From Oscillospiraceae bacterium (GTDB lineage Bacteria; Bacillota; Clostridia; Oscillospirales; CAG-272), in contig SVSC01000001.1 in NCBI GenBank assembly GCA_015064525.1, positions 1 through 56,072 of the forward strand: 56,072 bases of DNA, given 5' to 3'. Below the pieces are notes generated by a model. The model did not search any database. It was not told the DNA's origin and worked only from the letters and a program-made list of their open reading frames with translations. This document shows, piece after piece, positions 7,506 through 37,699 of this stretch; position 1 is the stretch's first letter, and the number at the start of each line of letters is the position of its first letter. Made by a program: the position numbers and the translations under genes.

Positions 7506-7553
7506 GAGTGTAAGATCATCACTCCGAGCAGATCGGAGGAAAGGACTGAAAGC

Positions 7554-8921: not shown

Positions 8922-8933
8922 GGAGAGAAACAA

Positions 8934-9935: not shown

Positions 9936-9936
9936 C

Positions 9937-11772: not shown

Positions 11773-11784
11773 GGAGGTGGCATT

Positions 11785-12628: not shown

Positions 12629-12799
12629 GACGAAACGAACGGATTTCGTCAGCTTGATGAAGGTTTTCGACCACCTTTTTCAAAAGGTGGCACGGATCCA
12701 ACGCCGTGGGGCGTTGGTCGCCCGTCGCAACGGGCGAAATCCTCCAAACGGCGTTTTCTTTGTTAGCTTTCTTTTGCGCCTGCGGCATCAAAAGAAAGC
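12629..12799. repeat. Third, diverged copy of the hairpin-module repeat (5 consecutive stem-loops)
   Basis: Hairpins at 12629..12650, 12671..12690, 12698..12717, 12718..12737 and 12766..12799. The hairpin tcgcccgtcgcaacgggcga is identical to 56044..56063. The hairpin ccaccttttt/caaaaggtgg differs from ccgccttttt/caaaaggcgg (55999..56018) by a compensatory pair. Confidence 0.85.
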
Positions 12800-12854
12800 G
12801 GCTAAGGAGTTTTTGCAATCTAAAGATTACGCACCTTTGGTCTACAACCCGAGG

Positions 12855-12894
12855 CGCCGTCAAGCAAAAGCGCTTGACGGCGGCTCGTTTTTTT
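12855..12894 (+). terminator. Rho-independent terminator closing the rnf transcription unit
   Basis: cgccgtcaagc / gcttgacggcg 11-bp stem followed by a run of 8 T (12887..12894). Confidence 0.75.
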
Positions 12895-12908
12895 GCAATA
12901 CGTATTGC

Positions 12909-14135: not shown

Positions 14136-14386
14136 TGGAATCTCCTTTTCTGTATGTTTGTGCTGTTATTATAGCATCTTTGCGCAAACCTGTCAAGTCT
14201 CGCCTGAATTTTTCGGGTATTTTTGTTGGCATGGGAGGAGGGAAGACGACCAAATGAGGGGTGTTGAAAATACATCGCCCGAGTGGTTGAAAAATAGGAT
14301 GCAAGCGAAATAAAGCCGTTTTTTTGACAAATGTTGAGAATGCGAAAAAGTTTCCTCCGAAAAGTCGCTTTTTTATTATGATATTG

Positions 14387-14415
14387 TTGACAAAATTTGC
14401 GCGCTGTGATATAAT
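14387..14415 (+). promoter_or_regulatory. Sigma-A type promoter of the three-gene lipoprotein operon
   Basis: TTGACA (14387..14392), 17-nt spacer, TGaTATAAT (TATAAT at 14410..14415), about 85 nt upstream of the ATG at 14500. Confidence 0.7.
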
Positions 14416-14499
14416 TACCATGAATGAGTGTCTTTGCCGTCGGGAATCCGCGTAAGCGACGCGCGGCGAAGAAAAAGTGTGAAACAACAGGAGACGAAT

Positions 14500-17073
14500 A
14501 TGAAACAGATCAAAATATTGGCGTGGATCCTTGTGCTTTTGCTGGCGACAGCCTGCCTGTGGGCTTGCGATGACGTTGGAGAGGAACCCTCGGAGAACAA
14601 CGATCCCCCCTCGGGCAACGTTCAGAACCCCGTTGGAAACGGTGAGATCATGATCACCTATTATCCCGACGCGGGTCAGGCGGCTGTAACCGTTCGGGTA
14701 ACGGGCGGCTTTACGCTGAGCCCCATCCCCACCAAGGCGGGGCATGAGTTTTTGGGGCTGTTCGACGCGCCCGCGGGCGGTAGCTGTATCGTCAATGCCA
14801 ACGGGGAGCTAACGGTCACCCTTGCCAAGTCGGTCACCCTTTACGCCCAATGGAAAACCAAGACCTACAAGCTGATCTTCGATCCTGCCGAGGGCGAGCT
14901 GAGTCGCAAGGAGCAAACGGTGCTGATGGGCGGCGCGGTGGTTGCCCTGCCCGTGCCCGAAAGAGAGGGCTTCGATTTTGTTGGCTGGCAGGATCAGCGC
15001 GGCAACATGATCTCGGAGGGATCCAAGGTGTTGGACGCATGGAAAACCTTCACCCCCGAAAGCTATTCCCTGGTGAATGATTGCGCTAGGCTGACCGCTG
15101 TGTACACTCGCCGCCAGATCACCGTCACGCTGGATTACCGCGACGGCAGCTACAAGGCGGGAACGCTGACCCTCAACTACGGTGATGTCCTCACCGCCTC
15201 CTCTCTTCCCGTGGAGGATAACGGCACTCGTCGGATCGTGGCGTGGTCGATCTTTGCCAACGGAACCGTTCCCTATGCGGATGACGCGGTGGAGGAGAGC
15301 TTCACTCTTTACGCGGTCTGGAAAAATTATCAAACCGTGATGATGGACGATGGCATGGGCAATCAAACCAAGGCGTACGTTTATGAGGGCGAGCGCTTCG
15401 ACCTGAACACCTACAACGGTGTGGTGCGCCCCGGCTACCGTGTGGAGGGCTGGTATTCCAACCAAGGTCTCACGGGCTCCCCCGTTACCCATCTTTCCTA
15501 CGGTATGGCGCAAACGGTTTTCTACGCCAAGTGGACGCCCACCGTGTACACCCTGACCTTTGACGCGGTAAGCACGGGAAAGACGATTCAGCCGATCACG
15601 TATTCCTACGGCAGCTTTGTGCAGCTGGAGAGCCTCTATCGGGAGGGCTACACCTTCAACGGTTGGTGCGTCACGCCCGATTGCTCGGATCCCCCCATGA
15701 CCGCCGTAACGGCGGAGTTCTTCGGGGATTACACCCTCTACGCCAAGTTTACTCCCGATAGCTACACCGTGAAGCTGAATCCCGGAAAGGGAACCGTGAG
15801 CCGCGAGGAGGCGCAGGTTTCCTACGAAAGTCACTTTATTCTTCCCATCCCCACCCGCGCGGGCGCTTCCTTTGTGGGATGGTACTATCTGGAGGACGGA
15901 GTTGAGGTGCTTTGTACCGACGAATTGGGTCAGTCCACCAAGATCTACACCTTCATGGAGGGCAAAACCCTCTATGCCCGTTGGAAGACCGTAACGCTTA
16001 CCGTTTACTACGATTCCAACGGCGGCACCGAGGTGGCGGCGCAGACCTACGGCTACGGCGACCCGCTGAAATTCCCCGCGCCTCCCACCAAAACCAATCT
16101 TTATTTCATGGGCTGGTATCACGGCGATCTTTCAGAGGCGTATTTGCAGGATTCCGAGGTGAACAGCAATCTCACTCTCTATGCCAAGTGGGGAGACGTT
16201 GACCGCGGGGAGGTTTACGGAAAGTGCAATTACGAGAGCATTTTGGATACTGCCACCGAGTATAACGGAAATTACTACAAGATCTTCAACCTCACCTGTA
16301 CCTGGGAGCAGGCAAGGGCATACTGCGAGGCGCTGGGCGGACATCTGGTAACCATCACCTCCATCGGTGAGGATGCCGTTTGCGGGCAGATGTACCGCGC
16401 CAACAACGTGACCACCTGCTATATCGGCGCTACCGACAAGGATGCCGAGGGCGTTTGGACCTGGGTGACCGGTGAGAAGTGGGGCTACAACAACTTCAAC
16501 ACGGGCGAGCCCAACGGCGGAACGGGCAGTAACTTCGGCGCCTACTACATCATCAACGGGCAGACCGCCTACTGGGACGATACCTCGGGCGAGCATATTT
16601 TCATGTGCGAATGGGAAGAGGGCGACGTGGCGTGGGTCCGCGAGAACGTGGGCTTCCTCAAGAGCGCCGACGAGCTTTACAACGAGGCGATCTACTACGC
16701 GGGACACGTTTATCAGGTCTATAATATTTCGGACTACGATTACGCCAAGCAGAAGCAATACTGCGAGAAGCTGGGCGGTCGGCTTGCAACCATTGAAAGC
16801 GCGAGAGAAAACACCGTTGTGGGCTTCCTTTTGAAAACGGCGGGAATTGCCAACGCGATATTTGGCGCAACCGACCGATATCAGGAGGGAACGTGGTGTT
16901 GGACCGACGGCAGAGTGATCGGCTACAGCAATTGGAACAGCGGTGAGCCCAACAACAGCAGCAATGCCGAGCATTACGCGGAGGTTTACGCCACCGGCGG
17001 ATGGAACGACGTGCAGGGCTCGGGCAGAGCGGCATTCGTTTGCGAATGGGACTACTGGGAGCTTAAACAATAA
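14500..17073 (+). CDS. Surface lipoprotein: about 7 Listeria-Bacteroides (InlB B-repeat/Flg_new) modules plus two C-terminal C-type lectin domains
   Basis: ATG at 14500 after aggag. Signal peptide MKQIKILAWILVLLLATACLWAC. Repeats of about 70 aa end in TLYA[QKR]W. There are two CTLD signatures (TWEQARAYCEALGGHLVTI..EPN..WDD..CEWE and YAKQKQYCEKLGGRLATI..EPN..WND..CEWD). Confidence 0.9.
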   Translation: MKQIKILAWILVLLLATACLWACDDVGEEPSENNDPPSGNVQNPVGNGEIMITYYPDAGQAAVTVRVTGGFTLSPIPTKAGHEFLGLFDAPAGGSCIVNANGELTVTLAKSVTLYAQWKTKTYKLIFDPAEGELSRKEQTVLMGGAVVALPVPEREGFDFVGWQDQRGNMISEGSKVLDAWKTFTPESYSLVNDCARLTAVYTRRQITVTLDYRDGSYKAGTLTLNYGDVLTASSLPVEDNGTRRIVAWSIFANGTVPYADDAVEESFTLYAVWKNYQTVMMDDGMGNQTKAYVYEGERFDLNTYNGVVRPGYRVEGWYSNQGLTGSPVTHLSYGMAQTVFYAKWTPTVYTLTFDAVSTGKTIQPITYSYGSFVQLESLYREGYTFNGWCVTPDCSDPPMTAVTAEFFGDYTLYAKFTPDSYTVKLNPGKGTVSREEAQVSYESHFILPIPTRAGASFVGWYYLEDGVEVLCTDELGQSTKIYTFMEGKTLYARWKTVTLTVYYDSNGGTEVAAQTYGYGDPLKFPAPPTKTNLYFMGWYHGDLSEAYLQDSEVNSNLTLYAKWGDVDRGEVYGKCNYESILDTATEYNGNYYKIFNLTCTWEQARAYCEALGGHLVTITSIGEDAVCGQMYRANNVTTCYIGATDKDAEGVWTWVTGEKWGYNNFNTGEPNGGTGSNFGAYYIINGQTAYWDDTSGEHIFMCEWEEGDVAWVRENVGFLKSADELYNEAIYYAGHVYQVYNISDYDYAKQKQYCEKLGGRLATIESARENTVVGFLLKTAGIANAIFGATDRYQEGTWCWTDGRVIGYSNWNSGEPNNSSNAEHYAEVYATGGWNDVQGSGRAAFVCEWDYWELKQ

Positions 17074-17118
17074 GACAGACCGAACGAGAGATCGAATCAA
17101 GTCAGGAGGAACTTTATC

Positions 17119-20100
17119 TTGAAAAAACGTATTTTATGGATCACGGCGATGCTGCTGGTTCTGTTGCTTACTCTCGGACTCACCGCTTGCGATGATGATG
17201 AGGGCGGTAGCGGGGGCGACGGCAACGGTCCGATCAACGATCCGTCCTACAACGATGGTGTTGGCTCGCAGCCGATTACCGTTACCTATTTCACCGAGGC
17301 GGGAGGCGCTGCCCTCACCGCAACGGTAACCGACGGGCGCTTCACGCTGTCGCCGATCCCCACCAAGGAGGGCTATGTTTTCCTGGGGCTCTTTGACAGT
17401 CCCACGGGAGGCAGCTGTATTGTGGATGCTTACGGCGGCAGTCAGGTGACCTTTACCAAGTCGGTCACACTCTATGCCCAGTGGTCGGCAAAGAGCTACA
17501 CCGTGCTGCTCGATCCCGCGGGCGGAAGCATGAGCGGGTCGGATACCATGACGGTTACCTACGGCTCCTATATGCCCATGCTTCCCGTTGTGGAAAAGCC
17601 GGGCTTCGAGTTTGTGGGCTGGACCGATAACGTACACGGTCTTTGCTCCAACAAGGAAAACGTGCTTTCCGAGTTTTCCACCTTCAACAGCCTGAATTAC
17701 TTCATCAACAACGATTCGGTCACGCTTTACGCCACGTTTAAGGAGAAGAAGCTCACCGTTACCTTTGACTACAACGACGGTAGCTATCAGACCGATTCCT
17801 TTTCCGTGAAGTACGGCGACACGGTGGGCGCGGATCGTTACCCGCAAATGGACACGGGCAGCCGCGTGATCACGGGATGGTCGCTGAACCGCAACGATAT
17901 GGTTGCTCATTCGGGCCCCATTACCTCGGATCTCACTCTCTACGCCATTTGGAAGGACTATAAAACCTTCACGCTCCATGCGGGCAACGGCGATCAGCCC
18001 ACGCAGATCAAGGTGTTCCGCAACGAGTTCCATAATCTGGAGGCTCCTCAATGGAACGGCTACGAGTTCGACGGTTGGTACACCTCCACGCTGTTCTCGG
18101 GCGTTCCCGTGACGACCGTGGGCTATGGCTCCGCCAATTCGGAGCTGTACGCCAAGTGGATTCCCATCGACTACACCCTGCACCTGCAGGTGGGCGACGG
18201 AACCAGTCTCCCCGATATGTCCTATAACGTGAAGGACACGCTGGAGCTTCCCACGGCAACCAGACAGTATTGCACCTTTATCGGTTGGTGCCTGAGAGAG
18301 GATCTCTCCGATACTCCCTTTACCACTCTTCCCGCAGGCTACACGGGGGAATTGACCCTTTACGCCAAGTTCGCGGGTGAGGACAGAACGGTGATTCCCG
18401 ATGCCTGCGGCGGCAGTCTGGCGCAGAAGCAGGTAACCGTGGAATACGGCAACTTCTATCAGCTTCCCGTTCCCTCCAAGGAGGGCTACCTGTTCGTTGG
18501 CTGGTTCGCGGGCAATGACGAGGACGCGCTTCGCCTCACCGATGAGAACGGTAAGTCTCTCTCCGCCTTCAATTACGCCGAGGAAAGCACCACGGTGTAC
18601 GCCAAGTACTCCAAAAAGTACTACGTTCGCGTGGAAATCAACCTTCCCGCGGGAGGTAGCGTGGAGGTGAAGGAGCATTACGCCAACGGAGGAACGGTTG
18701 CTCCCAAGCTCACCCTCAACACGGGCTATATTTTTGAGGGCTACTACGTTGATAACGAAAAGATCTCCGACGATCCCAACTATACCTTCCTGATGGAGGG
18801 CATGGACGTGACGCTGGAGGTGCGCTTCAAGGCGAAGGAATACACCTTTACTCTGAATTCCGACGGCGGCTTCTGCCAGCAAGGCTCCGCTTCGGTGGTT
18901 CACGGCGAGAGCTATCTGCTGCCCGTTGCGTGGAAGCAGGGCTATCTGTTCAGCGGCTGGTCCTATAACGGTCAGCTGATCACCGATGAAACCGGCGCGT
19001 CGCTGGAAAGCTGGTCCCGCGAGGTTGCGGGCTCCACGCAGCTCAAGGCGGTCTTCATTGTGGATCCCCAGGGCGAATCCTTCATTGTGGTGAAGGATAA
19101 GGAAACCTTCCTCACCATGCTTCAGTTCCCCGACCGTGTCTACAGCCTTGTGGCGGACATCGACCTTTCGGGCGTTACCTGGAATCCCGTTGCCTTCAAG
19201 GGACAGCTCTACGGCAACAATTTCACCATTAAAAACCTCACCGTCACCTCCAACGCGCAGAACGTGGGTCTGTTCACCGTTCTCACGGGAACCGTGAGAG
19301 ATCTGAACTTCGAGAACGTGACGGTGAAGTCCGAGGGCTACAACGGCAATGCCTACGTTGGCGTGGTTTGCGGTACCCTGCAGGGCGGTAAGATCGAAAA
19401 CGTGAAGGTGCTTTCGGGCAGCGTTTCCGCAGGTGTATCTCACGTTGGCGGTATCGCGGGCTACGTTCTCACCAACAGCACCGTGAACGGCTGTGTGAAC
19501 CACGCCACCGTTACGGGCGCCGCCTCGGAGAGCTCGGGCGCAACCGGAGGTATCGTGGGTCATATTCCCGCTAACGCCGCCGTTACCCTAACCAACTGTG
19601 AGAACCACGGTGCCATTACGGGAACCTGGCGCACGGGCGGTATTGTGGGCGCGCTTTATGAGAACATCAAAATTTACAACGTGCTGAACACGGGCGCCAT
19701 CGTTGGTTCCAACAACGAAACGGGCGGTATCGTGGGCTCCTTCCAAACCTCCCATGCGGGAACCTTCGATCTCAACTGGAAGGCTGTGAACCGAGGCGCG
19801 GTTACGGGCAACAACAGCACGGGCGGTCTGATCGGATACGCAAAATATAACTTCGGCGGCTACGCCACCCTCTATTTCAACGATTCTCTCAACGAGGGAA
19901 CCGTTGTGGGAAACCAGTACGTTGGCGGTATCGTTGGTTACGGCTATTATAACTCCACCAACAACGATCTGGTGATCACCGTTTCGGGGCAAAAGAATCT
20001 GGGCAACGTGACGGGTAAGAACCACGTTGGCGGTATCTACGGCTACGTTTACTCCGATAACTACCTTTCGGTTCTGAAGGGAAGCTCCTCCTCCGCCAAG

Positions 20101-23100
20101 ATTTCCGGTGACTACTACATCGGCGGCATCATCGGTAAGGCGGATAACCTCTACGTGGACTCCTGCTCCAACAAGGGCAGTGAGATCATTGTAACGGGTA
20201 GCTACGTCAACAACAACACCTTCCAGACCTGGGTGGGCGGCTACGTTGGTTACGGTGCCTTTGTTTCCAACTGTCGCAACGAATGCGCCATCTCGGTTGC
20301 GGGCGAGGGCAAATTCGTTGGCGGTATTGCGGGGTATGTGAATCGCGGTGTTTCCAACTGCGAGAACCTTGGAGCCATCAATGCGCCCAAGTGCGATGCG
20401 GTTGGCGGCGTTGTGGGCGGCTCCTACGGCAGCGCCGTGCTGACACAGCAGAACCTCACCAATAAAGCAGACGTCACCGGTAAAACATGGGTTGGCGGTG
20501 TTTACGGCTATCTGGATGAAAACACCAGCGGCAATCCCAATCACGTGGTCACCGACCTTCGCAACGAGGGTAACGTGACCGGTGTGGAATGCGTTGGCGG
20601 TATTTTGGGCTCCTTCTACGGGCAATCCTCCAACGGCAACGTTCTCATGTCTCTCTCGAATTGGCACAGCGTCGGTAACGTCACCGGAGACATCCGAGTG
20701 GGTGGCGTGGTTGGTAAAGCATATGGCGATTATCAGCTCTCCCGCCTCACCAACGCCACGGCAAAGGGCGTGATCACGGGTCGCTACTACGTTGGCGGTA
20801 TTGTTGGTATGTGCGAGAACATCGTTCTCGACACCTGCTCCAACGAGGGCACAAGCTTTGTGATCACGGGAAGCTATCTGGACGGCACCGTTTACCGCTC
20901 CTTCGTTGGCGGTATCGCGGGCTATAGCTTCAGCATTCTCAATTCCACCAATCACGCGGATATCACCGTGGATTATGATGGCAGAAACGTGGCGGGTATT
21001 GTTGGTCATGGCTACGGCGTTCTGCAGAACTGCACCAATCTCGGCAACATCAATGCGCCCAAGTGTGATTACGTTGGCGGCATCACGGGTAATGTTACCA
21101 CCGGTATTGCCGAGGGACACCATCACCTGGAAAACAAGGGAAGCGTTGCGGCGAGAAGCTACGTTGGCGGTATCTTCGGTCGCTTTGAAAACGCGAACTC
21201 CGGTAATAACACACAAGCTGTTGAGCATTTGAACAGCGAGGGCAACGTTTCGGGCGAGCTCTACGTTGGCGGTATTGTGGGTCACATCTACTATAATTCC
21301 TCCAACGGCTCCAACCGCATGAGCGCAACCGACTGGAGCTGTGAGGGTGACGTGACGGGTAACAATCATATTGGCGGTCTCATTGGTTTTGGTGAAACCG
21401 ACCATGCGGAATCCATCCTCACGGAATCCACCTATTCGGGTAAGGTTTCCGCAAACTACATTCTCGGCGGCATTGCGGGTAAGCTGCTTTCCGTTGTGCT
21501 GGACAGCTGCTCCGTTGAGGAGGGCAGCGTGCTGAACGTTACCGGCAACTGGCTGGACGGCTCCACCTACCGTATCTACGCGGGCGGTATCGCGGGTCAA
21601 GGCTATAGTATCTTTCATTGCAAGAACAGCATTGCCATCACAATCACCACCGAGGGCGACCACGTTGGCGGCATTGCGGGCTACACCTACGGTGTGATCG
21701 AAAATTGCGAAAACACCGCGGAGATCCATGCGCCCAAGTGTCAGTACGTTGGCGGTATCGTTGGTCGGGCATATTCCAACGTGAACAGCTCGGTGAACTC
21801 CTACAGCAAGCTCACCAACAGCGGTAAGATCACGGGTCTGAACTACGTTGGCGGCGTTGCGGGCTATTTTGAAAGTCATTGTTATTACGGCAGTACACAG
21901 AATATCACGGATCTTACCAACAGCGGTGAGATTACGGGTGCTTTGTACGTTGGCGGTGTTGTGGGCAGTCTCTACGATAACTCGTCGAACAGCACGCTCG
22001 TCATGCTGGCGAGCGGCTGGAAGAACGAGGCGAACGTAACGGGTACCGGCTACGTTGGCGGTCTCATCGGAACCGCCTCCACCGATGTGAACACCTCCAA
22101 GCTTTCCGAATCCTCCTCCTCGGGAGCGATTAAGGCGGCATACCGCGTTGGCGGTTTGGTTGGCAGCATGACGCTGCTCACGCTGGACACCTGCTCCAAC
22201 GAGGGAACCACCGTAACGGCAACCGGCTTTGAGAATTCCGATTCCTTCGGAAACAATGCCTACGTTGGCGGCTACGCTGGCTACGGCTACGGCTTTATCA
22301 ATTGCCACAATGCGTCGAGCATCACCCTTTCCCACGCGGGCAACTGCGTTGGCGGTATCGTGGGCTATGCCTACGGTAGCCTGGAGAACTGCTCCAACGA
22401 GGGCGAGATCAACGCTCCCAAGGGTACCTTTGTTGGCGGCGTTGTGGGCAGAAGCTATTCGGGCGACAATTCTTTCCTTCCTTCTTATAAAGAGCTTTCC
22501 AACAGCGGCAAGATCACGGGTAAAGACTACGTTGGCGGTGTGCTGGGAAGCGCGGAGGCCGAATGCTATTACGGCGGCACGCAGATTTACCGCGCGCTTT
22601 CCAACACGGGGCTTATCCTTGGCGAAAGTCAGGTTGGCGGCGTGGTTGGAAATATCTATCTGAATTCCAACAACAGCGTGGTGAAGATGGATGCCACCGA
22701 TTGGAGCAATGTCTCCAACGTAACGGGCAACAACCGCGTTGGTGGTCTGATCGGCGACGTTTACACCGATTCGGTGGATTCCAAGCTGTCGCAGTCCACA
22801 TCCATCGGTAACATCTCCGCCGACTACTATCTGGGCGGTCTGGTGGGCTCCGCCGAGTATCTGACGCTGGAAGCCTGCTACAACGCGGGAACCAGGGTCA
22901 ATGTTACGGGCTACCTGCTGGAGAACTCGGTTTACTACACCTATGCGGGCGGCTTTGCGGGCAAGGGATACCGCTTCATTGACTGTGTGAACACGGTGGA
23001 GATCAGCGTTGACCAAAAGGGCTCCTACGTTGGCGGTATCGCGGGCTACGTTTCGGCATCCTCCGCAGGCGCGTCCTCCGGATGCAAGAATACGGCGAAG

Positions 23101-26100
23101 GTAACCGCAAAGAACTGTGACTACGTTGGCGGTCTCTACGGCTACTTTGCCACCAACACCTCCTCGAGTATTTCCAATTTCACCAACGAGGGCGACGTTT
23201 TGGGTAAAACCTTTGTTGGCGGTCTGTTCGGCTACCATTATACCTATGGTGGCGGCGCCATCACCGTAACCCTCACCGATCTCACCAATAGCGGAAGCGT
23301 TGAGGCAAAGGCAGATACCGCGGGCGGCATCGTCGGATTCTATTCGGGCGATTCCTCCAACAATAACTGCACGCTCAACGGAACCAACTGGAAGAACACG
23401 GGAGACGTGAAGGTGGAGGGTCATCGCGCGGGCGGTCTCCTGGGCTACGGCTGGACCGACCACAACGCCTCCAAGATTCAGAATTCCTCCTCCGCGGGTG
23501 AAATTTCCGCTGAGTATTACGTTGGCGGTCTGGCAGGATACCTTTCCAATATTGAATTGAACAGTTGCTCCAACAAGGGAACAACCATCAAGGTTACGGG
23601 TTATCTGCTGGATAATTCGGTTTACTACACCTATGCGGGCGGCTTTGCGGGCTACGGCTACCGCTTTACCTCCTGCGAGAACAACGCAACCGTCAGCGTC
23701 AGCCAAAAGGGCGCGAACGTGGGCGGTATCGCGGGCTGGGCAAACGGCTATGCCAACAGCTGCGCAAACCTGGCGGATATCACCGCTCCCAACTGCGAGA
23801 ACGTGGGCGGTATCTACGGTCAGTATAACTACGGTGGCTCCATGACCATGACCGATCTTTCCAACGAGGGTGACGTCACCGGAAAAACCAAGGTTGGCGG
23901 TATCTACGGCTACTACTACACCTACGGCAGCGGCGCCATCACCATCAATCTCAACACGCTGGAGAACGAGGGAGCCATTACCGCGAGCGGCGAGTCTGCG
24001 GGCGGTATCGCGGGCTACTTTAACGGCGACTCCTCCAACAACAACTGCACCTTCACGGGAACCGATTGGGAGAACTCGGGCGACGTTACGGGCGACATTC
24101 GGGTTGGCGGTCTGATCGGTCACCTATGGGACGATTACACCGGCTCCAAGCTGCAGGAATGCTCCTCCTCGGGAACCATCACGGGTAGAGCATACGTTGG
24201 CGGTCTGGCAGGCTGCGCTTGGTACACCACCTTCTTTGCCTGCGATAACATTGGCACCAAGATTGTGGTAACGGGCAACCTGCTGGAGAACTCCGTGTAT
24301 TATCTCTACGTTGGCGGCTACGCGGGCAGAGGCTATGCCTTTACCGATTGCGTGAACTACGCGGATCTTTCCGCCGCGAGCAAGGGCTACTACGTTGGCG
24401 GTATCGCGGGCTACTGCGATGGCAGCCTCTCGGGCTGCGAGAACTATGGCGGAATCACCGCAGCCAACGCCACCTACGTTGGCGGCCTGGTGGGCAGAGT
24501 GGAATGCTACGCCAATATCAGCGTAACCGAATCCTTGAATGAGGGCGACATTATCGGTAAGGATCACGTTGGCGGTTTGTTCGGAGAAGTTTATATGTAT
24601 CTGGCAAGCTATCGCGAGGTCACCTTCTCCAATCTGCAAAATAAGGGTGACGTGACTGCCTCGGGCGATTATGCCGGTGGTATCGCGGGCTACCACAACA
24701 CCATTTCTACCAATAATAACTGCCTCTTCCGCGGCACCGGCTTGAAGAACAGCGGCAACGTGACGTCAACCGGCGGCTACGTTGGCGGTCTGTTCGGATA
24801 TCTGGTGACCGACTACGCCGAATCCAAGCTGGAGGAAAGCTCCTCCTCGGGTGCGGTAAAGGGCGCTCACACCGTTGGCGGTCTTGTTGGTTGGGCAACT
24901 GCCGTGAAGCTTTTGAACTGCTCCAACGAGGGAGCCTCCGTGGAGGCCACAGGCAGCCTTCTGAAAAATGACGTACACTACGCTCAGGTTGGCGGCTACG
25001 TTGGCTATAGCGACGGTAACACAACCATCACGGGCTGCGACAACGCCGTGGATATTATCTACAGCGGTAACGGCATTTACGTTGGCGGAATCGCGGGCTA
25101 CTGCACCAACAGCATCACCGATTTCACCAACGTTGGTGAAATCAACGCGCCTCGGGCAGCCCACGTTGGCGGTATCGTGGGAAGACTGGCTTGTGACAGC
25201 ACCGTCACCGTCACCGCAACCGTTAACGAGGGCAAGATCACGGGTAAGGATCACGTTGGCGGCCTGTTCGGAGAGGTTTATATGTATCTGGCAAGCTATC
25301 GCGAGGTCACCTTCTCCAATCTGCAAAATAAGGGTGACGTGATTGCCTCGGGCGATTATGTGGGCGGTATCGCGGGCTACCACAACACCATTTCCACCAA
25401 TAATAACTGCCTCTTCCGCGGCACCGGCTTGAAGAACAGCGGCGATGTGACGTCAACCGGCGGCTACGTTGGCGGTCTGTTCGGATATTTGGCTACCGAC
25501 TACGCCGAATCCAAGCTGGAGGAAAGCTCCTCCTCGGGCGCTGTGAAGGGATTGCACACGGTTGGCGGCATCGCGGGTTGGGTTACCGCCGTGAAGCTTT
25601 TGAACTGTTCCAATGAGGGAGCCACTGTGGAAGCTACGGGAAGCTTCCTGCAGAATGATATTTATTATGCACAGGTAGGCGGCTACGTTGGCTACAGCGA
25701 CGGTCTTGCTCCCATCACGGGTTGCAACAATGCCGTGAATATTACCTACAGCGGTAACGGTATTTACGTTGGCGGTATTGCGGGCTATAGCTCCTACACC
25801 ATCACCGATTGCACCAACAGCGGTACTATCACCGCTTCGAAGTCCGATTATGTTGGCGGTATCGTTGGTAGAATGGGATGCTCCACGGGAGCGCCCGATT
25901 TGAAAAACTGTACCAACAGCGGCAAGATCACGGGTAACGCTCAGGTTGGCGGTCTTGTGGGAGAGTTCTATTTCAACTATTCCTCCGAGCGTCATTCCTA
26001 TTTCAGTGATCTCACCAACAGCGGCGCGGTTCTTGCCTCGGGCGAGAACGCGGGCGGTATCGTTGGAAACTACTATTTCAACTCCACCAACAGCGTCGCA

Positions 26101-26979
26101 ACCCTCCATGCCAACAGCTTGAAGAATACCGCAAGCATAACAGGCACGCGTGGGGTAGGAGGCATTTTCGGAAAGCTTTATACCGATACCACTAACTCTA
26201 AAATGGAGGCATGCTCCTCCTCGGGTGCTGTGAAGGGCGTGAGCGCCGTTGGCGGCTTGGTTGGATATGCGGAAAACCTGCAGATTGTCAATTGCTCCAA
26301 TGATGGAGCAACCGTTACAGCTACCGGTGCTTACACAGAAAACGGGGCGAATGACGCTCAGGTTGGCGGCTACGTGGGCTACTTCAACGGAACGGTTTCC
26401 GGATGCGTTAACAAAGCGATCGTTTCCTACAGCGGTGACGGTAAATACGTTGGCGGTATTGCGGGACATTGCGTTTCCACCATTACCGATTGTGAGAACC
26501 AAGGCAATATCACCGCGTCCAATGCCTCCTATGTTGGCGGCATTGTGGGTAGACTGGGAGGCTCCTCCAACTGTCCCGACATGAAAAATTGCTCCAACAG
26601 TGGCACTGTGCAGGGCAAGGAACGTGTGGGGGGATTGATGGGTGACTACTATGTGAGCGCGGGCAATAATCACTGCACCACCTATTTCGCCTCTCTCACC
26701 AACACGGGTAATGTGGTTGCCTCGGGTGATTACGTTGGCGGCATCATCGGATATTGCTACGGAGCTGCCAATGGCGGTTACACCGACACATTCGTTGCCA
26801 CCGATCTCAAAAATACGGGCAATGTGCGGGGAGGCGATTTTGTGGGTGGTTTGATCGGAGAGTTTTCATCGGACACCTCCGCATCCTCCATCACAGGCTA
26901 TTCCTCCACGGGAACCATCGTTGCAACGGGCACCAAATCCGAGCTGGTTGCGCAAAGTCAAAATTTGACCTTGAAATAA
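17119..26979 (+). CDS. Giant (3286 aa) surface lipoprotein: about 8 Flg_new modules followed by a GLUG-motif beta-solenoid
   Basis: TTG start 9 nt after aggagga. Signal peptide with lipobox LGLTAC|DDD. N-terminal repeats resemble those of the upstream gene. From about aa 640 there are hundreds of [VI]GG[IL][VA]G[YR] coils (GLUG-like). An uninterrupted 9.86-kb frame. Confidence 0.92.
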   Translation: MKKRILWITAMLLVLLLTLGLTACDDDEGGSGGDGNGPINDPSYNDGVGSQPITVTYFTEAGGAALTATVTDGRFTLSPIPTKEGYVFLGLFDSPTGGSCIVDAYGGSQVTFTKSVTLYAQWSAKSYTVLLDPAGGSMSGSDTMTVTYGSYMPMLPVVEKPGFEFVGWTDNVHGLCSNKENVLSEFSTFNSLNYFINNDSVTLYATFKEKKLTVTFDYNDGSYQTDSFSVKYGDTVGADRYPQMDTGSRVITGWSLNRNDMVAHSGPITSDLTLYAIWKDYKTFTLHAGNGDQPTQIKVFRNEFHNLEAPQWNGYEFDGWYTSTLFSGVPVTTVGYGSANSELYAKWIPIDYTLHLQVGDGTSLPDMSYNVKDTLELPTATRQYCTFIGWCLREDLSDTPFTTLPAGYTGELTLYAKFAGEDRTVIPDACGGSLAQKQVTVEYGNFYQLPVPSKEGYLFVGWFAGNDEDALRLTDENGKSLSAFNYAEESTTVYAKYSKKYYVRVEINLPAGGSVEVKEHYANGGTVAPKLTLNTGYIFEGYYVDNEKISDDPNYTFLMEGMDVTLEVRFKAKEYTFTLNSDGGFCQQGSASVVHGESYLLPVAWKQGYLFSGWSYNGQLITDETGASLESWSREVAGSTQLKAVFIVDPQGESFIVVKDKETFLTMLQFPDRVYSLVADIDLSGVTWNPVAFKGQLYGNNFTIKNLTVTSNAQNVGLFTVLTGTVRDLNFENVTVKSEGYNGNAYVGVVCGTLQGGKIENVKVLSGSVSAGVSHVGGIAGYVLTNSTVNGCVNHATVTGAASESSGATGGIVGHIPANAAVTLTNCENHGAITGTWRTGGIVGALYENIKIYNVLNTGAIVGSNNETGGIVGSFQTSHAGTFDLNWKAVNRGAVTGNNSTGGLIGYAKYNFGGYATLYFNDSLNEGTVVGNQYVGGIVGYGYYNSTNNDLVITVSGQKNLGNVTGKNHVGGIYGYVYSDNYLSVLKGSSSSAKISGDYYIGGIIGKADNLYVDSCSNKGSEIIVTGSYVNNNTFQTWVGGYVGYGAFVSNCRNECAISVAGEGKFVGGIAGYVNRGVSNCENLGAINAPKCDAVGGVVGGSYGSAVLTQQNLTNKADVTGKTWVGGVYGYLDENTSGNPNHVVTDLRNEGNVTGVECVGGILGSFYGQSSNGNVLMSLSNWHSVGNVTGDIRVGGVVGKAYGDYQLSRLTNATAKGVITGRYYVGGIVGMCENIVLDTCSNEGTSFVITGSYLDGTVYRSFVGGIAGYSFSILNSTNHADITVDYDGRNVAGIVGHGYGVLQNCTNLGNINAPKCDYVGGITGNVTTGIAEGHHHLENKGSVAARSYVGGIFGRFENANSGNNTQAVEHLNSEGNVSGELYVGGIVGHIYYNSSNGSNRMSATDWSCEGDVTGNNHIGGLIGFGETDHAESILTESTYSGKVSANYILGGIAGKLLSVVLDSCSVEEGSVLNVTGNWLDGSTYRIYAGGIAGQGYSIFHCKNSIAITITTEGDHVGGIAGYTYGVIENCENTAEIHAPKCQYVGGIVGRAYSNVNSSVNSYSKLTNSGKITGLNYVGGVAGYFESHCYYGSTQNITDLTNSGEITGALYVGGVVGSLYDNSSNSTLVMLASGWKNEANVTGTGYVGGLIGTASTDVNTSKLSESSSSGAIKAAYRVGGLVGSMTLLTLDTCSNEGTTVTATGFENSDSFGNNAYVGGYAGYGYGFINCHNASSITLSHAGNCVGGIVGYAYGSLENCSNEGEINAPKGTFVGGVVGRSYSGDNSFLPSYKELSNSGKITGKDYVGGVLGSAEAECYYGGTQIYRALSNTGLILGESQVGGVVGNIYLNSNNSVVKMDATDWSNVSNVTGNNRVGGLIGDVYTDSVDSKLSQSTSIGNISADYYLGGLVGSAEYLTLEACYNAGTRVNVTGYLLENSVYYTYAGGFAGKGYRFIDCVNTVEISVDQKGSYVGGIAGYVSASSAGASSGCKNTAKVTAKNCDYVGGLYGYFATNTSSSISNFTNEGDVLGKTFVGGLFGYHYTYGGGAITVTLTDLTNSGSVEAKADTAGGIVGFYSGDSSNNNCTLNGTNWKNTGDVKVEGHRAGGLLGYGWTDHNASKIQNSSSAGEISAEYYVGGLAGYLSNIELNSCSNKGTTIKVTGYLLDNSVYYTYAGGFAGYGYRFTSCENNATVSVSQKGANVGGIAGWANGYANSCANLADITAPNCENVGGIYGQYNYGGSMTMTDLSNEGDVTGKTKVGGIYGYYYTYGSGAITINLNTLENEGAITASGESAGGIAGYFNGDSSNNNCTFTGTDWENSGDVTGDIRVGGLIGHLWDDYTGSKLQECSSSGTITGRAYVGGLAGCAWYTTFFACDNIGTKIVVTGNLLENSVYYLYVGGYAGRGYAFTDCVNYADLSAASKGYYVGGIAGYCDGSLSGCENYGGITAANATYVGGLVGRVECYANISVTESLNEGDIIGKDHVGGLFGEVYMYLASYREVTFSNLQNKGDVTASGDYAGGIAGYHNTISTNNNCLFRGTGLKNSGNVTSTGGYVGGLFGYLVTDYAESKLEESSSSGAVKGAHTVGGLVGWATAVKLLNCSNEGASVEATGSLLKNDVHYAQVGGYVGYSDGNTTITGCDNAVDIIYSGNGIYVGGIAGYCTNSITDFTNVGEINAPRAAHVGGIVGRLACDSTVTVTATVNEGKITGKDHVGGLFGEVYMYLASYREVTFSNLQNKGDVIASGDYVGGIAGYHNTISTNNNCLFRGTGLKNSGDVTSTGGYVGGLFGYLATDYAESKLEESSSSGAVKGLHTVGGIAGWVTAVKLLNCSNEGATVEATGSFLQNDIYYAQVGGYVGYSDGLAPITGCNNAVNITYSGNGIYVGGIAGYSSYTITDCTNSGTITASKSDYVGGIVGRMGCSTGAPDLKNCTNSGKITGNAQVGGLVGEFYFNYSSERHSYFSDLTNSGAVLASGENAGGIVGNYYFNSTNSVATLHANSLKNTASITGTRGVGGIFGKLYTDTTNSKMEACSSSGAVKGVSAVGGLVGYAENLQIVNCSNDGATVTATGAYTENGANDAQVGGYVGYFNGTVSGCVNKAIVSYSGDGKYVGGIAGHCVSTITDCENQGNITASNASYVGGIVGRLGGSSNCPDMKNCSNSGTVQGKERVGGLMGDYYVSAGNNHCTTYFASLTNTGNVVASGDYVGGIIGYCYGAANGGYTDTFVATDLKNTGNVRGGDFVGGLIGEFSSDTSASSITGYSSTGTIVATGTKSELVAQSQNLTLK
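20158..26976 (+). repeat. Ten in-frame tandem super-modules (period 672-690 bp, about 230 aa) within the giant gene
   Basis: Module starts, marked by the recurring [DN]xC[SY]N[EKA]G motif, fall at 20158, 20830, 21512, 22186, 22870, 23560, 24235, 24913, 25600 and 26287. Conserved Cys positions recur in each module (CxN.G, NC.N.G.I.AP.C.YVGG). Confidence 0.85.
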
Positions 26980-27006
26980 GGTCTAAAAAATAAAAAGGAG
27001 ACTATC

Positions 27007-30000
27007 ATGAAAAAAAGATTTCTGATCCTGACCCTTGTTCTGCTTCTTTCGGTGCTGGCGTTTTCCGCCTGCGATAAGGAAGCAGGCGGCAGCGGCGCTC
27101 TGGGTGGCTTGCTCGGCGGCGCTCCCGTCACCCCCCAGAACCTGCGCTACGATGGCACCCTCATCACGTGGAATGCCTCGGAGGGCGCGGAGGCGTACCT
27201 CGTTCAGATCAACGATGGCGAGGAGTGGACGGTAACCGTTCCTCAGTATGCCTACGACGCTGCGGGCGGTCAATTCACCTTTAAGGTGACTGCCGTTGCC
27301 GATGCGAACGCCAAGAAGCCCAAGAAATCCGAGCCCGCAACCATGAACTTCAAGCCTCTGGGCAACATTGGGGAATTGCGCGTGGCAGACGACGGAAGCG
27401 TTTCCTGGGACGTTGTGAGCATGGCAACCGCCTACGTTGTGAAGATCGACGGCGTGCAGACCGCCCACGTGCTTCCCACTCCCACCTTCACCGAGGTTCC
27501 CGTGGGCAGACACAGCATTCAGATCCGCCCCGTGATCAACGGCGACGATTCCTACTACTCCAAGTGGAGCAACCCCGTCAGCTTCGAGGTTCTGCAGCCC
27601 GTTTCCAAGGATACCATCACCTATGATCCCAGCGGCTACATCAAGTGGGGCGCTGTGGGCGCGCAGTTCTATGACGTTTACGTGAACGGTAATCTGATTG
27701 CGGATAACTGCAACAGCACGCAGGTGAGCTATGATCCCCTGAACGCCAACTTTGAGGTTACCATTCAGGCGATCGGTAACCATTCCTCCACCTACGACGC
27801 AAAAATAAGTGATGCCAAGAAGTTCGTCTTCCTGGATTCGGTTACCAACATTGTGGTTGAGGACGGTATTTTGAAGTGGGATCCCGTGAACGGCGCCAAC
27901 GGCTACCGTTTACGCCTCAACGGCACCGAGCTGAACGAAACCTTCACCACCTGCGAATTCAACCGTCTCACCGCCAACACCAACACTCGCGTGGAGATCC
28001 GTGCCATCAGCAATGACGACACCTATTTCTCCTCCTGGTCGGCTGAAAAGAACGTGCTTCTCCTGCCCGCTCCTACGCTCCGTTGGAACGAGTATGAGCT
28101 GGACGGTCAGGCAAACAGCAACATTTATTGGGATACCGTTGCCCAAGCGGCAGGCTATGCGATCCGCATCACCCGTCCCAACGGTGTAACCGAGGTTCTG
28201 ACCTACGGCGAGACCCAGAGATTCTTCCAAGAGGCTTATCTGGAAAGCGGAACCTACATTGTTGAGGCAAAGGCGCTGGCAAACACCACCACCAGCAACG
28301 TGTACGATTCCATTTATTCCACCCCCATCAAGGTCATCCGTTTGGATGCTCCCAAGCCCGCCAAGAGCAACCCCCTCACCAGTAATCCCAACGATCTGGA
28401 CGACGGATTTGTTGTAACCTTCGAAAAGGTTGCGGGCGCCACCTCCTATAAGCTCTTCCAGGATAACGTTCTCAACCAAACCATTTCCTCTACTCAGGGA
28501 CAGTTCTCCGTGAAGAATTTCTCGGATCCCGGCAGAATTGAGGAGCAGACCTACAACTTTAAGATCCAGAGCGTGGGCTCGGTGCAAACCGTGAACGGTC
28601 AGATCGTTGCAACCCTCAGCTCTCTCAGCGCGAATTCCTATGCCTTTGAGGTTACCGTGCTGGCAACACCCGCACAGCCCACCATCAGCGGTTATCAGTA
28701 TTCCTATGGCTCTGTGAGCCGTGCCTTCGGCTACGTTGTGGACGTTGGCGGTCAGAGCTTTGTGAGCGGCGAAACCTTCTATAATTTGGATATGCTGGCG
28801 GCAGGCAACTATTCTGTCAGCGTTTGCGCTCAGGGTAACGGCACCAACGTGCTGCCCTCCAACTACTCCGCGCCCATCACCGTTTACCGTTTGGATGCTC
28901 CCGCCAACGTGCGCATCGACACTACCGAGGCATCCGAGGGTATCCTCACCTTCGACGACGTGCTGTACGCGCAGAGCTACGAGGTTTTCTTCAACAACGA
29001 CGGTAACGCCCTTCCCGTAAGCTCCATTCAGAACATGAACCAGTATATCACCGAGCAGGGAACCACGGTTCATATGAAGAGCGTCGCTAACTACTACAAC
29101 TCCGACGGAACCATCTACTATATGTCCTCCCAGCCCGGCTCCACCACCAACTTCATCAAGCTGGCAAAGCCCACCTTCGGTGACGTTGCGTTTACCAACG
29201 ATAACCTGATCTGGAAGGCTCCCGGCAACGTGGATTCCTCGGTTTACACGCCCACCTATGAGGTTTATTACCCCAACGGCATGATCTACAACGGCGAGAA
29301 GAACGGAACCTCCTTCAGCCTTGCAACCCTGGAGGGCGGACAGTCCTATGAGTTCCAGGTGAAGGCGATCGGTAACGGAACCAAGTATATCAACTCCGAA
29401 AAGTCGATCACCGTGGCGATCTACAAGCTGGCAACTCCCAAGGTTGAGCGCGAGAACGGTAAGTACGTGTTCAAGCGCGTGACCAATGCCGTGAGCTACG
29501 CCGTTTACGTGGACGGTGAGCTGGTTGCCACCTATCAGCACAATTCCGACATCACCTCCTATGAGTACACGCCTCTCTTCAAGGAGCTGAAAACCTACAT
29601 GGTTGAGGTGGTTGCGATTGGTGACCAGGGCTACACCAGCATCAATTCCAACCCCTGCGTGATCGAGCAGGAGACCAAGCAGCTGCAGACTCCCGATTTC
29701 AAGCTGAGCTACAGCGAGGAGAGCTATAGCCCCTCGGGTCAGGTGATCGCAACCATCACCAAGGAATCCCCCTACGCGAAGGAATATGCCTACGATATCG
29801 GCGGCACCACCTACACCTCCGCGGCGCTTTCTCAGGGTAAAACCGTTAGCACCGCAGGTAAGATTACCGTGAGAGTGTACGCCATTGGCGGAAACTTTGA
29901 TGAGAACGGCGTTTACTACATTGATTCTCAGAGTCAGGGCGGAAACGATCGCTATTCCATCATCATTCTTGCGTCTCCCAACCCCTCCGACTTTAAGTTC

Positions 30001-30240
30001 TCCATGGACGGTTCGATTTCCTGGACTCCCATCAGCGGCACCAGCAAGTATCGCGTGACCATTGTGTGCGGAAACGTGAGCAAGACCGTTGAGGTGACCT
30101 CCACCACGTTGGATCTTCTCAACTATGAGGAGTTTGAGGACGTGAATATGAAGTCCGACCACATCGAGATCACGGTTCAAGCCATCGGAAACGGAATGAC
30201 TACCGTTACCTCTGAGGCTGCCACCGCGGTTTGGAACTAA
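27007..30240 (+). CDS. Surface lipoprotein composed of about 12 FN3/Ig-like modules
   Basis: 1077 aa. Signal peptide with lipobox LAFSAC|DK. Twelve units of about 85-95 aa each show the pattern P.n[LIV]....g.[IL].W..V.gA..Y.[VI]......, e.g. PQNLRYDGTLITWNASEGAEAYLVQING. Confidence 0.85.
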   Translation: MKKRFLILTLVLLLSVLAFSACDKEAGGSGALGGLLGGAPVTPQNLRYDGTLITWNASEGAEAYLVQINDGEEWTVTVPQYAYDAAGGQFTFKVTAVADANAKKPKKSEPATMNFKPLGNIGELRVADDGSVSWDVVSMATAYVVKIDGVQTAHVLPTPTFTEVPVGRHSIQIRPVINGDDSYYSKWSNPVSFEVLQPVSKDTITYDPSGYIKWGAVGAQFYDVYVNGNLIADNCNSTQVSYDPLNANFEVTIQAIGNHSSTYDAKISDAKKFVFLDSVTNIVVEDGILKWDPVNGANGYRLRLNGTELNETFTTCEFNRLTANTNTRVEIRAISNDDTYFSSWSAEKNVLLLPAPTLRWNEYELDGQANSNIYWDTVAQAAGYAIRITRPNGVTEVLTYGETQRFFQEAYLESGTYIVEAKALANTTTSNVYDSIYSTPIKVIRLDAPKPAKSNPLTSNPNDLDDGFVVTFEKVAGATSYKLFQDNVLNQTISSTQGQFSVKNFSDPGRIEEQTYNFKIQSVGSVQTVNGQIVATLSSLSANSYAFEVTVLATPAQPTISGYQYSYGSVSRAFGYVVDVGGQSFVSGETFYNLDMLAAGNYSVSVCAQGNGTNVLPSNYSAPITVYRLDAPANVRIDTTEASEGILTFDDVLYAQSYEVFFNNDGNALPVSSIQNMNQYITEQGTTVHMKSVANYYNSDGTIYYMSSQPGSTTNFIKLAKPTFGDVAFTNDNLIWKAPGNVDSSVYTPTYEVYYPNGMIYNGEKNGTSFSLATLEGGQSYEFQVKAIGNGTKYINSEKSITVAIYKLATPKVERENGKYVFKRVTNAVSYAVYVDGELVATYQHNSDITSYEYTPLFKELKTYMVEVVAIGDQGYTSINSNPCVIEQETKQLQTPDFKLSYSEESYSPSGQVIATITKESPYAKEYAYDIGGTTYTSAALSQGKTVSTAGKITVRVYAIGGNFDENGVYYIDSQSQGGNDRYSIIILASPNPSDFKFSMDGSISWTPISGTSKYRVTIVCGNVSKTVEVTSTTLDLLNYEEFEDVNMKSDHIEITVQAIGNGMTTVTSEAATAVWN

Positions 30241-30250
30241 CAAATAAAAA

Positions 30251-30305
30251 ACAGAAGCCCTCCCCCGCAAGCAGGCGCTTGCGGGGGAGGGCTTCTGTTT
30301 TTTTC
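30251..30305 (+). terminator. Strong rho-independent terminator of the lipoprotein operon (A-tract/T-tract, potentially bidirectional)
   Basis: Perfect 22-bp stem (acagaagccctcccccgcaagc / gcttgcgggggagggcttctgt), loop aggc, followed by a T-run at 30298..30304. Confidence 0.93.
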
Positions 30306-30370: not shown

Positions 30371-30460
30371 GCTTTCAAGGATCGACGTTCGTTCAGTTAA
30401 ATTTTGATTATTCCGTCCCCGAGAATGAAATTTTATCTGTTTCCAAAACAGTTCAACCTC

Positions 30461-30866
30461 ACTAACATCGTGGAGCGTTTTGGGTGGTGGTACCAAAACG
30501 CTTGCGGGAGCTATTGCGTGGTGAGCGTACCGCAGATAGGCGGCATAAAACTACAGACCGAGCCGCCATGTATTGCAAACTCCAAAACAACCCCTGATGA
30601 AAGTTCTTGGAGGTGTGGAACCTTCTTTCAAGAAGGTTCCACAAGCCACCCTTTTCTTTCCAAACTAACATCGTGGAGCGTTTTGGGTGGTGGTACCAAA
30701 ACGCTTGCGGTAGCTATTGCTTGATCAGCGTACCGCAGATAGGCGGCATAAAACTACAGACCGAGCCGCCATGTATTGCAAACTCCAAAACAACCCCTGA
30801 TGAAAGTTCTTGGAGGTGTGGAACCTTCTTTCAAGAAGGTTCCACGAGTTCAAATGACTCCAAACT
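30461..30866. repeat. Tandem duplication (period 203 bp) of a 182-bp hairpin-rich non-coding element
   Basis: Cores at 30461..30642 and 30664..30845 are both 182 bp and differ at 4 positions (30508, 30518, 30521, 30523 versus their partners). Each has 4 predicted stem-loops, including a 12-bp stem gtggaaccttct/agaaggttccac. The boundary word ccaaactaac occurs 3 times. Confidence 0.9.
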
Positions 30867-32410: not shown

Positions 32411-32452
32411 GGTGTTGCTCCTTTCATAAAAAGAAATCGAAATACGGTCTGC

Positions 32453-34058: not shown

Positions 34059-34236
34059 TTAAGAACAGCAGAGCAGAGTTGCGCTTTATAAAATGAATAA
34101 TTTCTTCGGAAAAACTTCAAAAAAGCACGATTCGGCGATGTGTCAACGGGCTTGCCGCGCCCCATTGCGGCGGATGCTTTGATTGTTAGCCTTTGATCGG
34201 GGCTGCAATATAAAAAATTTCATGGAGGAAAATATC

Positions 34237-36462: not shown

Positions 36463-36513
36463 GCTACCTTGGTCGGAGAGTGTTTGAATTGAATACTGTC
36501 TGACTGCTTGAAC

Positions 36514-37685: not shown

Positions 37686-37699
37686 GGGGGAAAAATGCC

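Follow-up and report, generated by a model that had tools for sequence, protein, structure and literature searches.

Fibrillar adhesins are surface proteins that combine a stalk, an adhesive region and a surface anchor, and the Flg_new domain is an accepted stalk domain among them (Monzon et al., J Bacteriol 2022, PMC9210967). Three long open reading frames (ORFs) that invite comparison with these adhesins, here called g1, g2 and g3, follow one another on the + strand of contig SVSC01000001.1 from an uncultured gut Clostridia bacterium (Oscillospiraceae bacterium, GCA_015064525.1), within the 56,072-nucleotide stretch of DNA that was analysed as a whole (hereafter the window); the gaps between them are 45 nt and 27 nt, as had been stated in an earlier reading of the sequence without database searches (the sequence-only reading) and as the ORF coordinates bear out. 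In our judgment it is fairly probable that they form one transcription unit, which would produce three separately lipid-anchored, rod-like surface proteins. The source is a metagenome-assembled genome that carries the NCBI label Ruminococcaceae/Oscillospiraceae bacterium (locus tag E7620_00090, JGI sample 3300031555). The parts of the unit are as follows:

14387..14415, + strand: sigma-70-type promoter (TTGACA, 17 nt, TG-extended TATAAT; 12/12 in a consensus scan)
14500..17073, + strand: g1, a predicted 857-aa lipoprotein with an Flg_new stalk and a tandem C-type lectin head
17119..26979, + strand: g2, a predicted 3286-aa lipoprotein with an Flg_new stalk and a GLUG beta-helix rod
27007..30240, + strand: g3, a predicted 1077-aa lipoprotein, the signature gene of a conserved cassette
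30251..30305, both strands: bidirectional intrinsic terminator (G+C-rich stem of at least 20 bp, T-runs on each strand)

Set beside the fibrillar adhesins, g1 and g2 are alike in their great length, their repetitive Flg_new stalk and their distal non-stalk region, and g3 in being an all-stalk, FN3-like chain; all three are unlike them in that the predicted anchor is an N-terminal lipid rather than a C-terminal LPXTG motif or wall-binding domain, in that they come as three in a single operon, in that g3 has no adhesive domain, and in that the cassette has an invariant member. With the InlB B-repeat or Listeria-Bacteroides proteins (PF09479, TIGR02543), among which are the 'adhesin-like proteins' of gut archaea and bacteria, g1 and g2 share 7–8 modules above threshold, but unlike the internalins they contain no leucine-rich repeat (LRR) or internalin domain. 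An assignment to the class 1 internalins was rejected: the NCBIfam InlA and InlH models reached ~61 bits against cut-offs of 1050–1600, with the B-repeat part alone matching.

The distal parts have described counterparts of other kinds. A model of the g2 helix superposes on the GLUG protein BACOVA_03286 (PDB 3n6z) and on the N-terminal domain of the S. pneumoniae IgA1 protease (6xja; PMC7695701); unlike the protease, g2 has no M26 catalytic domain, and unlike either structure its helix is ~10x longer (~80 coils) and built of 225-aa super-repeats. An identity as an M26 IgA1 metalloprotease was rejected, as there was neither an M26 match in g2 nor a PDB sequence match. The second of the two C-type lectin domains (CTLDs) of g1, CTLD2, shares the EPN, Glu and WND of the sugar/Ca2+ site with collectin-11, MBP-A and SP-D; the g1 lectin differs from the collectins in being bacterial, in tandem and carried on an Flg_new stalk, with no inner disulfide, collagen or neck. 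Long chains of Ig/FN3-like beta-sandwiches comparable to g3 occur in the GhpA fibre of Aureispira (PDB 9flp and related entries) and in the FN3 arrays of titin and fibronectin, the likeness being one of fold at 9–17% identity; where GhpA is very large and secreted by a Gram-negative predator, g3 is predicted to be a lipoprotein, with 12 modules and a fixed length.

A proposed transcription unit and its predicted lipoproteins

The sequence-only reading had placed a near-consensus promoter at 14387..14415 and a terminator with a 22-bp stem behind g3, and we recovered both. The promoter is a perfect match with a TG-extended -10 box, of a kind that by our estimate would be expected ~0.006 times on both strands of the 18-kb region, and the terminator scan found a strong hairpin at 30251–30298 with at least 20 pairs (20 being the most that the scan counts), 13–14 of them G-C depending on the register. 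All remaining promoter-like and terminator-like matches between 13500 and 31500 were weak and not above those in shuffled sequence (9 observed vs 10.4 expected, and 15 vs 19.8); internal promoters or terminators splitting the operon, which had been named earlier as the evidence that would speak for separate genes, were therefore rejected, none exceeding the shuffle expectation. The g1-g2 and g2-g3 junctions hold ribosome-binding sites only (AGGAGG for g2 and AGGAG for g3), and each of the three starts is preceded by a strong site.

Two of these starts deserve comment. The start first listed for g1, GTG 14428 (ORF 14428..17073), sits 13 nt past the -10 box; ATG 14500, with GGAG as ribosome-binding site 7 nt before it, is thus taken as the real start, correcting g1 to 857 aa. 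The TTG start proposed for g2, which gives 3286 aa, is backed by its AGGAGG site, the JGI start call lying 10 codons later. The 5' leader of ~77 nt between promoter and g1 has no significant RNA fold (z = -1.2) and no Rfam match at gathering thresholds, so a riboswitch or other leader RNA upstream of g1 was rejected. An invertible, phase-variable promoter was likewise rejected, the inverted repeats at 13900–14700 being weak (76–80% complementary, or a 10-nt match).

The unit is bounded upstream by a divergently transcribed gene (12909–14135, - strand) and downstream by a convergent VWA/YfbK gene, and G+C content is uniform over the locus. Back to back with the operon promoter, within 250 nt of it, is a second perfect 12/12 extended -10 promoter on the - strand (14168–14196), which serves the gene at 12909–14135; this encodes a 408-aa protein that belongs to no Pfam or NCBIfam family and has a weak URO-D-like match only. 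An ORF on the + strand at 12654–14174 was set aside as a shadow of this gene.

Lipoboxes were assessed with a PROSITE PS51257-type pattern, [LVI][ASTVI][GAS]C following a basic n-region and a hydrophobic core, and all three proteins matched it: g1 at LATAC (Cys19), g2 at GLTAC (Cys24) and g3 at AFSAC (Cys22), each N-terminus having 2–3 K/R in its first 8 residues and each lipobox Cys being followed by an acidic or Gly-rich linker. The lipoboxes that had been proposed by eye for g2 and g3 (LTAC and FSAC) agree with this; that proposed for g1, LWAC (Cys23), lies outside the pattern yet is a possible alternative, and the acidic linker behind it is shared with g2. In g3 the lipobox Cys is invariant among 50 homologues, down to 27% identity. 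Motif and Pfam scans upheld the earlier statement that other wall anchors are absent: no LPXTG was found in the C-terminal regions of the three proteins (a single LPVSS occurs mid-protein, at residue 669 of g3), no SLH or other wall-binding Pfam domain was detected, and the signal peptide is the sole hydrophobic segment of each.

Domain composition of g1, g2 and g3

Within the three proteins we delimited the following parts:

14500..14568, + strand: g1 signal peptide and lipobox (LATAC, Cys19, fits the pattern; alternative LWAC, Cys23)
14653..16191, + strand: g1 stalk of 7 Flg_new (Listeria-Bacteroides / InlB B-repeat) modules, residues 52–564 (Pfam and a self-derived hidden Markov model, HMM)
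16273..16617, + strand: g1 C-type lectin domain 1, ~residues 592–706, with EPN at 670 and WDD at 692
16696..17055, + strand: g1 C-type lectin domain 2, ~residues 733–852, with EPN at 816 and WND at 835
17278..19056, + strand: g2 stalk of 8 Flg_new-type modules, residues 54–646 (Pfam and self-derived HMM)
19066..26976, + strand: g2 GLUG right-handed beta-helix, a cap followed by 11 super-repeats (a partial one at either end)
27127..30237, + strand: g3 chain of 12 FN3/Ig-like beta-sandwich modules, residues 41–1077 (AlphaFold2, Foldseek)

The HMM searches that the sequence-only reading had recommended gave significant Flg_new, Lectin_C and Glug matches, while g3 could be classified at fold level only. 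For g1 the proposed composition of about 7 Flg_new modules and 2 C-type lectin domains holds above the Pfam cut-offs: Flg_new matched with E=4e-48 (161.8 bits vs a cut-off of 27; 86.7 vs 20.95 for TIGR02543), and Lectin_C (PF00059) with E=1e-24 (87.6 bits vs 22.6), split in two stretches. CTLD2 aligns over its full length to collectin-11 (best E=1.4e-14), MBP-A and SP-D, conserving EPN816, the next Glu and WND835, and is predicted to be a collectin-type Ca2+/mannose-class site; with this calcium site complete, Ca2+-dependent binding of mannose-, GlcNAc- or fucose-type sugars appears most likely. Its outer disulfide pair is present, and at the positions of the inner pair (the 'DCVEM' and 'VACH' Cys of collectin-11) it has Tyr and Gly; both g1 CTLDs lack the inner disulfide of their animal counterparts. 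The nearest relatives of the lectin part are microbial double-CTLD proteins with 42–46% identity, and such double-CTLD cassettes circulate among microbes; a transfer of the lectin from animals to bacteria was set aside on this ground.

C-type lectin folds are the usual targets of diversity-generating retroelements (DGRs), and the presence of this fold in g1, together with beta-helix rods that resemble tailspikes, might suggest a mobile or phage-derived receptor-binding module or a DGR target. We hold this to be very improbable, given that no template/variable repeat pair involving the lectin region (16273–17073) was found in the 56-kb window, that a scan of the flanking genes revealed no reverse transcriptase, phage or integrase genes, and that the locus is flanked by an Rnf operon, by genes for an ECF sigma factor and a VWA protein, and by an Opp transporter, with even G+C throughout. 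Since neither a repeat pair of this type in the window nor a reverse transcriptase among the flanking genes scanned was found, the DGR assignment itself was rejected.

In g2 the searches likewise confirmed the architecture read from the sequence, about 8 Flg_new modules followed by a GLUG-type solenoid, with Flg_new at E=7e-39 (132.2 bits vs 27; TIGR02543 64.4 vs 20.95) and Glug (PF07581) at E=3e-15 (55.8 bits vs 20.5). Over 516 aa its stalk is 38% identical to that of g1, its collinear paralogue. By sequence no PDB chain is related to the GLUG region, whose relatives were found by fold search only: an AlphaFold2 model of residues 640–1512 (pLDDT 87.4, pTM 0.85) is a right-handed beta-helix whose best Foldseek match is the GLUG domain 3n6z (E=5e-4), with weaker matches to Ag43, the pneumococcal IgA1 protease, Fap2, lyases and tailspikes. 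The super-repeats measure ~225 aa apiece and hold 7 xGGxxG coils each, ~80 coils overall, from which, at 4.8 Å per coil, we estimate a rod of ~38 nm. Two adjoining super-repeats, SR8 and SR9 (24385–25731), share 79% identity, against 29–55% for the remaining pairs, which points to a recent internal duplication; as the GLUG partner proteins of relatives also vary in length (~1700 to 3040 aa), the rod appears to evolve in length through gain and loss of super-repeats.

The structural matches also bear on a degradative role, by which the g2 beta-helix, and maybe g3, would act as a cell-bound polysaccharide depolymerase or protease and the lectin would target the cell to its substrate. Foldseek matches to chondroitinase B, PL6 lyases, polygalacturonases and phage tailspike depolymerases, the GLUG helices contained in IgA1 metalloproteases, and a weak Peptidase_M26_N match in a partner protein encoded beside the g3 homologue of one relative would all be in keeping with such a role. 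We nevertheless judge it unlikely: the enzyme matches had E > 0.1 and low TM-scores, the sole match with E < 0.001 being that to the non-catalytic 3n6z domain; Pfam finds no catalytic domain in g2, the M26 domain with its catalytic HExxH included; 11 diverged super-repeats in regular array are what one would expect of a structural rod more than of a single active-site groove; and neither genes for carbohydrate-active enzymes nor genes for sugar transport accompany the cassette in relatives.

The third protein, g3, had been described as 12 FN3-like modules, and this stands as a count of beta-sandwiches by fold, and not as a Pfam assignment: the fn3, PKD and Ig-like matches were all sub-threshold (fn3 17.5 bits vs a cut-off of 25). 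The AlphaFold2 model, computed from a 50-sequence alignment (pLDDT 87, pTM 0.38), is an all-beta, beads-on-a-string chain, with structural matches to the GhpA grappling-hook fibre, titin/MyBP-C, fibronectin FN3 arrays and cytokine receptors, and the 12 modules can also be traced by periodic W...A..Y and Y.F.V.A.G motifs that are invariant or nearly so in the family. With strong fold matches and a Pfam score below the cut-off, g3 is FN3-like by structure only. It has no recognisable head or binding domain. The family to which it belongs is unannotated, with ~60 clusters at 90% identity in a word-index search and more than 100 clusters at 50% identity that match the g3 profile end to end; nearly all members have 1040–1135 aa (1042–1116 aa in the 50 homologues), and conservation is even over modules 1–11 and lowest in module 12, the distal tip, and in the tether.

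So constant a length, with modules 1–11 evenly conserved, would also suit an architectural role in the envelope, in which, as an S-layer substitute, a coat or spacer of the three lipoproteins would set envelope geometry or shield the cell and g3 would serve as molecular ruler; that all components are predicted to be lipid-anchored and that none has a classical wall anchor agrees with this. Against it, g1 has a canonical sugar-binding site and the heads of the partner proteins turn over rapidly, as is typical of ligand-facing proteins, neither the promoter nor the gene context indicates abundance, and no lattice-forming domains were recognised in the three proteins, and we regard it as quite unlikely.

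A cassette built on g3 and how it may work

A scan of GTDB species representatives with a profile built from the 23 closest g3 sequences identified 40 g3 loci, each in a separate metagenome-assembled genome (MAG) and one per genome. All of these MAGs are of animal or human gut Clostridia, labelled Christensenellaceae, Christensenellales, Oscillospiraceae, Ca. Coproplasma, Ca. Scatosoma and similar. Among the 35 loci having at least 1.5 kb of DNA before the g3 homologue, an Flg_new/GLUG gene matching parts of g1 or g2 lies directly 5' of it on the same strand in 32, and in two of the three exceptions such a gene is 1.3–2.6 kb away; the co-occurrence in relatives that the sequence-only reading had asked about is thus borne out for g1/g2-type genes. 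Because the genes around the cassette differ between loci, the adjacency of g3 and Flg_new genes is specific. Each locus has 1 to 4 partner genes, encoding ~430 to 3040 aa; all 10 partner proteins tested pass the Pfam Flg_new cut-off, several also having short GLUG parts, and the strict lipobox pattern is found in 38 of 43 upstream partner genes. The order lectin, GLUG, g3 recurs at loci L008 (56% g3 identity), L020 and L041 (63%), and locus L011 has a fused Flg/lectin/GLUG gene.

Directly 3' of g3 in 26 of 39 loci there is a further gene, for a ~270-aa polytopic membrane protein with a conserved HELSHA (HExxH) motif, which shows sub-threshold similarity only, to M50B-like and daptide intramembrane metalloproteases; examples directly downstream of g3 homologues are:

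L008, 13255–14070: HExxH membrane-protein gene
L020, 13109–13987: HExxH membrane-protein gene
L004, 13181–13978: HExxH membrane-protein gene

This gene was not found anywhere in the 56-kb window (best tblastn E=0.74) and is absent from the relative with 81% identity, though present in those with 63% and 56%. By sequence comparison, then, the conserved unit is a set of 1–4 variable Flg_new lipoprotein genes, with or without GLUG, a 12-module g3 and usually an HExxH gene; the lectin/GLUG/FN3 trio is kept in the closest relatives only and is not the conserved unit.

This qualifies the earlier suggestion that the three-part combination itself may be a new system, the trio being limited to close relatives and each combination being common separately. 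Gut microbes widely encode giant proteins in which InlB B-repeats are joined to GLUG, Lectin_C, LRR and other domains and, as such combinations and double-CTLD cassettes are common, the individual architectures belong to known kinds. It is the cassette around the invariant 12-module lipoprotein that appears to be undescribed: a full-text literature search on Flg_new/GLUG/lipoprotein operons and bacterial EPN lectins returned general papers only, on fibrillar adhesins and on the structure of IgA1 protease, with no description of it.

The conservation of the cassette raises a doubtful alternative, attractive in view of the synteny, namely that its products assemble into one fibre, with the Flg_new stalks of the partners docking on g3 as their scaffold or ruler, and with the HExxH protein processing or releasing them in relatives. 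Several observations point this way: the tight same-strand adjacency of g3 and Flg_new genes among differing flanking genes, the strict length of g3 beside highly variable partners, the single g3 locus in each of the 40 genomes, the frequent HExxH gene behind g3, and the collinear, paralogous stalks of g1 and g2. On the other hand, an anchor and a stalk of its own would suffice for independent display of each protein, a distant g3 homologue (28% identity) is solitary with no Flg_new neighbour, and the lack of the HExxH gene in the window and in the 81% relative indicates that this gene is not obligatory. Very tentatively, we speculate that the g3 family, swappable Flg_new lipoproteins and the HExxH intramembrane protein make up an unrecognised surface-fibre system of uncultured gut Clostridia (Christensenellales/Oscillospirales-like); in such a system the g3 ruler would display interchangeable adhesins (a lectin, tunable GLUG rods) whose Flg_new stalks dock laterally, and the membrane metalloprotease would mature or shed adhesin subunits.

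We prefer to regard g1, g2 and g3 as three parallel lipid-tethered fibres. Domain matches, lipoboxes, co-occurrence and the lack of internal signals make co-expressed, solely lipid-anchored surface proteins the best reading, and a separate lipid anchor on each protein, together with the collinear paralogous stalks of g1 and g2, argues for parallel fibres and not one object. The adhesion apparatus envisaged by the sequence-only reading is retained in this form, as an operon of lipid-anchored, adhesin-like fibres, and is given up as a single object of head, fibre and stalk. The proteins would be exported by Sec, acylated on the lipobox cysteine and retained at the cytoplasmic membrane, in its outer leaflet, through a short acidic, Gly-rich tether. 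With an N-terminal lipid anchor, g1 and g2 would be fibrillar adhesins of inverted polarity relative to the usual kind, their heads C-terminal, and their stalks of 7–8 Flg_new modules would carry the distal parts across and past the wall. There the g1 head may bind mannose-class glycans in a Ca2+-dependent manner, and the distal part of g2 would be a long rigid GLUG rod whose length can evolve through its super-repeats; g3 would be a spacer or fibre of fixed length beside the variable adhesins, with its variable tip, module 12, as the likely contact surface. Gene order, signals, lipoboxes, domains, folds and synteny are what the analysis shows directly; from these features we infer surface exposure, sugar specificity, lengths and an adhesive role for the three proteins, standard module dimensions suggesting a reach of ~30 nm for g1, ~60 nm for g2 and ~40 nm for g3.

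Several points weigh against this picture of parallel fibres. Lipidation is deduced from the signal sequences alone and co-transcription from the sequence of the locus, and the fibres may emerge from the cell provided that the wall is thin enough. Sugar binding is not guaranteed, given WDD in place of WND in CTLD1 and the missing inner disulfide in both CTLDs; the beta-helix fold is common to polysaccharide lyases, hydrolases and phage depolymerases, which leaves room for a catalytic role of g2; and g3, in which no binding domain could be recognised, is given an adhesive role by conjecture only. The window's cassette may moreover be incomplete, or may rely on a gene elsewhere, as the HExxH gene is missing from it.

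The guts of animals and humans harbour Christensenellales-like and Oscillospirales-like bacteria in abundance, most of them uncultured, and we know of no established mechanism for their attachment to mucus, particles or partner cells. The locus offers a testable candidate, a collectin-type bacterial lectin of predictable sugar class together with a beta-helix rod of evolving length, and a conserved cassette of predicted lipid-anchored fibres can be recognised by the fixed-length, unannotated g3 family, which has more than 100 clusters at 50% identity. If the components cooperate physically, they would be new modular appendages for Gram-positive-type cells without sortase, SLH or cohesin-dockerin, and if g3 is truly a scaffold, the system would parallel pili or cellulosome-type scaffolds while relying on lipid anchors and needing no sortase. 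Without such cooperation the locus would still be a clean example of lipoprotein-only giant adhesins, with polarity inverted relative to the LPXTG paradigm.

Neighbouring genes

Beyond the cassette the window contains, among others, the following genes:

7464–12582, + strand: complete Rnf operon, RnfC/D/(G)/E/A/B, upstream of g1
30878–33651, - strand: ECF sigma factor, putative anti-sigma factor and VWA/YfbK protein, downstream of g3
53756–55912, - strand: Mrr-like restriction endonuclease, near the window end

None of the Rnf, ECF/VWA or Mrr-like genes is conserved beside the cassette in relatives. At the place of the HExxH gene of most relatives, past the operon terminator and before the convergent VWA gene, are two direct copies of a 185-nt element (30461–30645 and 30664–30848), 97% identical and 18 nt apart, each ending in a 12-bp hairpin (GTGGAACCTTCT/AGAAGGTTCCAC). 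The element has no Rfam match and no further copy in the window or in 50 related loci, and a 106-aa ORF spanning the copies (30404–30724) matched no family. Further downstream, within an Opp-like operon (34183–42284), the gene at 37700–39658 (+ strand) encodes an OppC-type ABC permease (OppC_N and BPD_transp_1) with an RCC1-repeat beta-propeller insert of ~140 aa (residues ~100–240) after the first transmembrane region, an unusual fusion.

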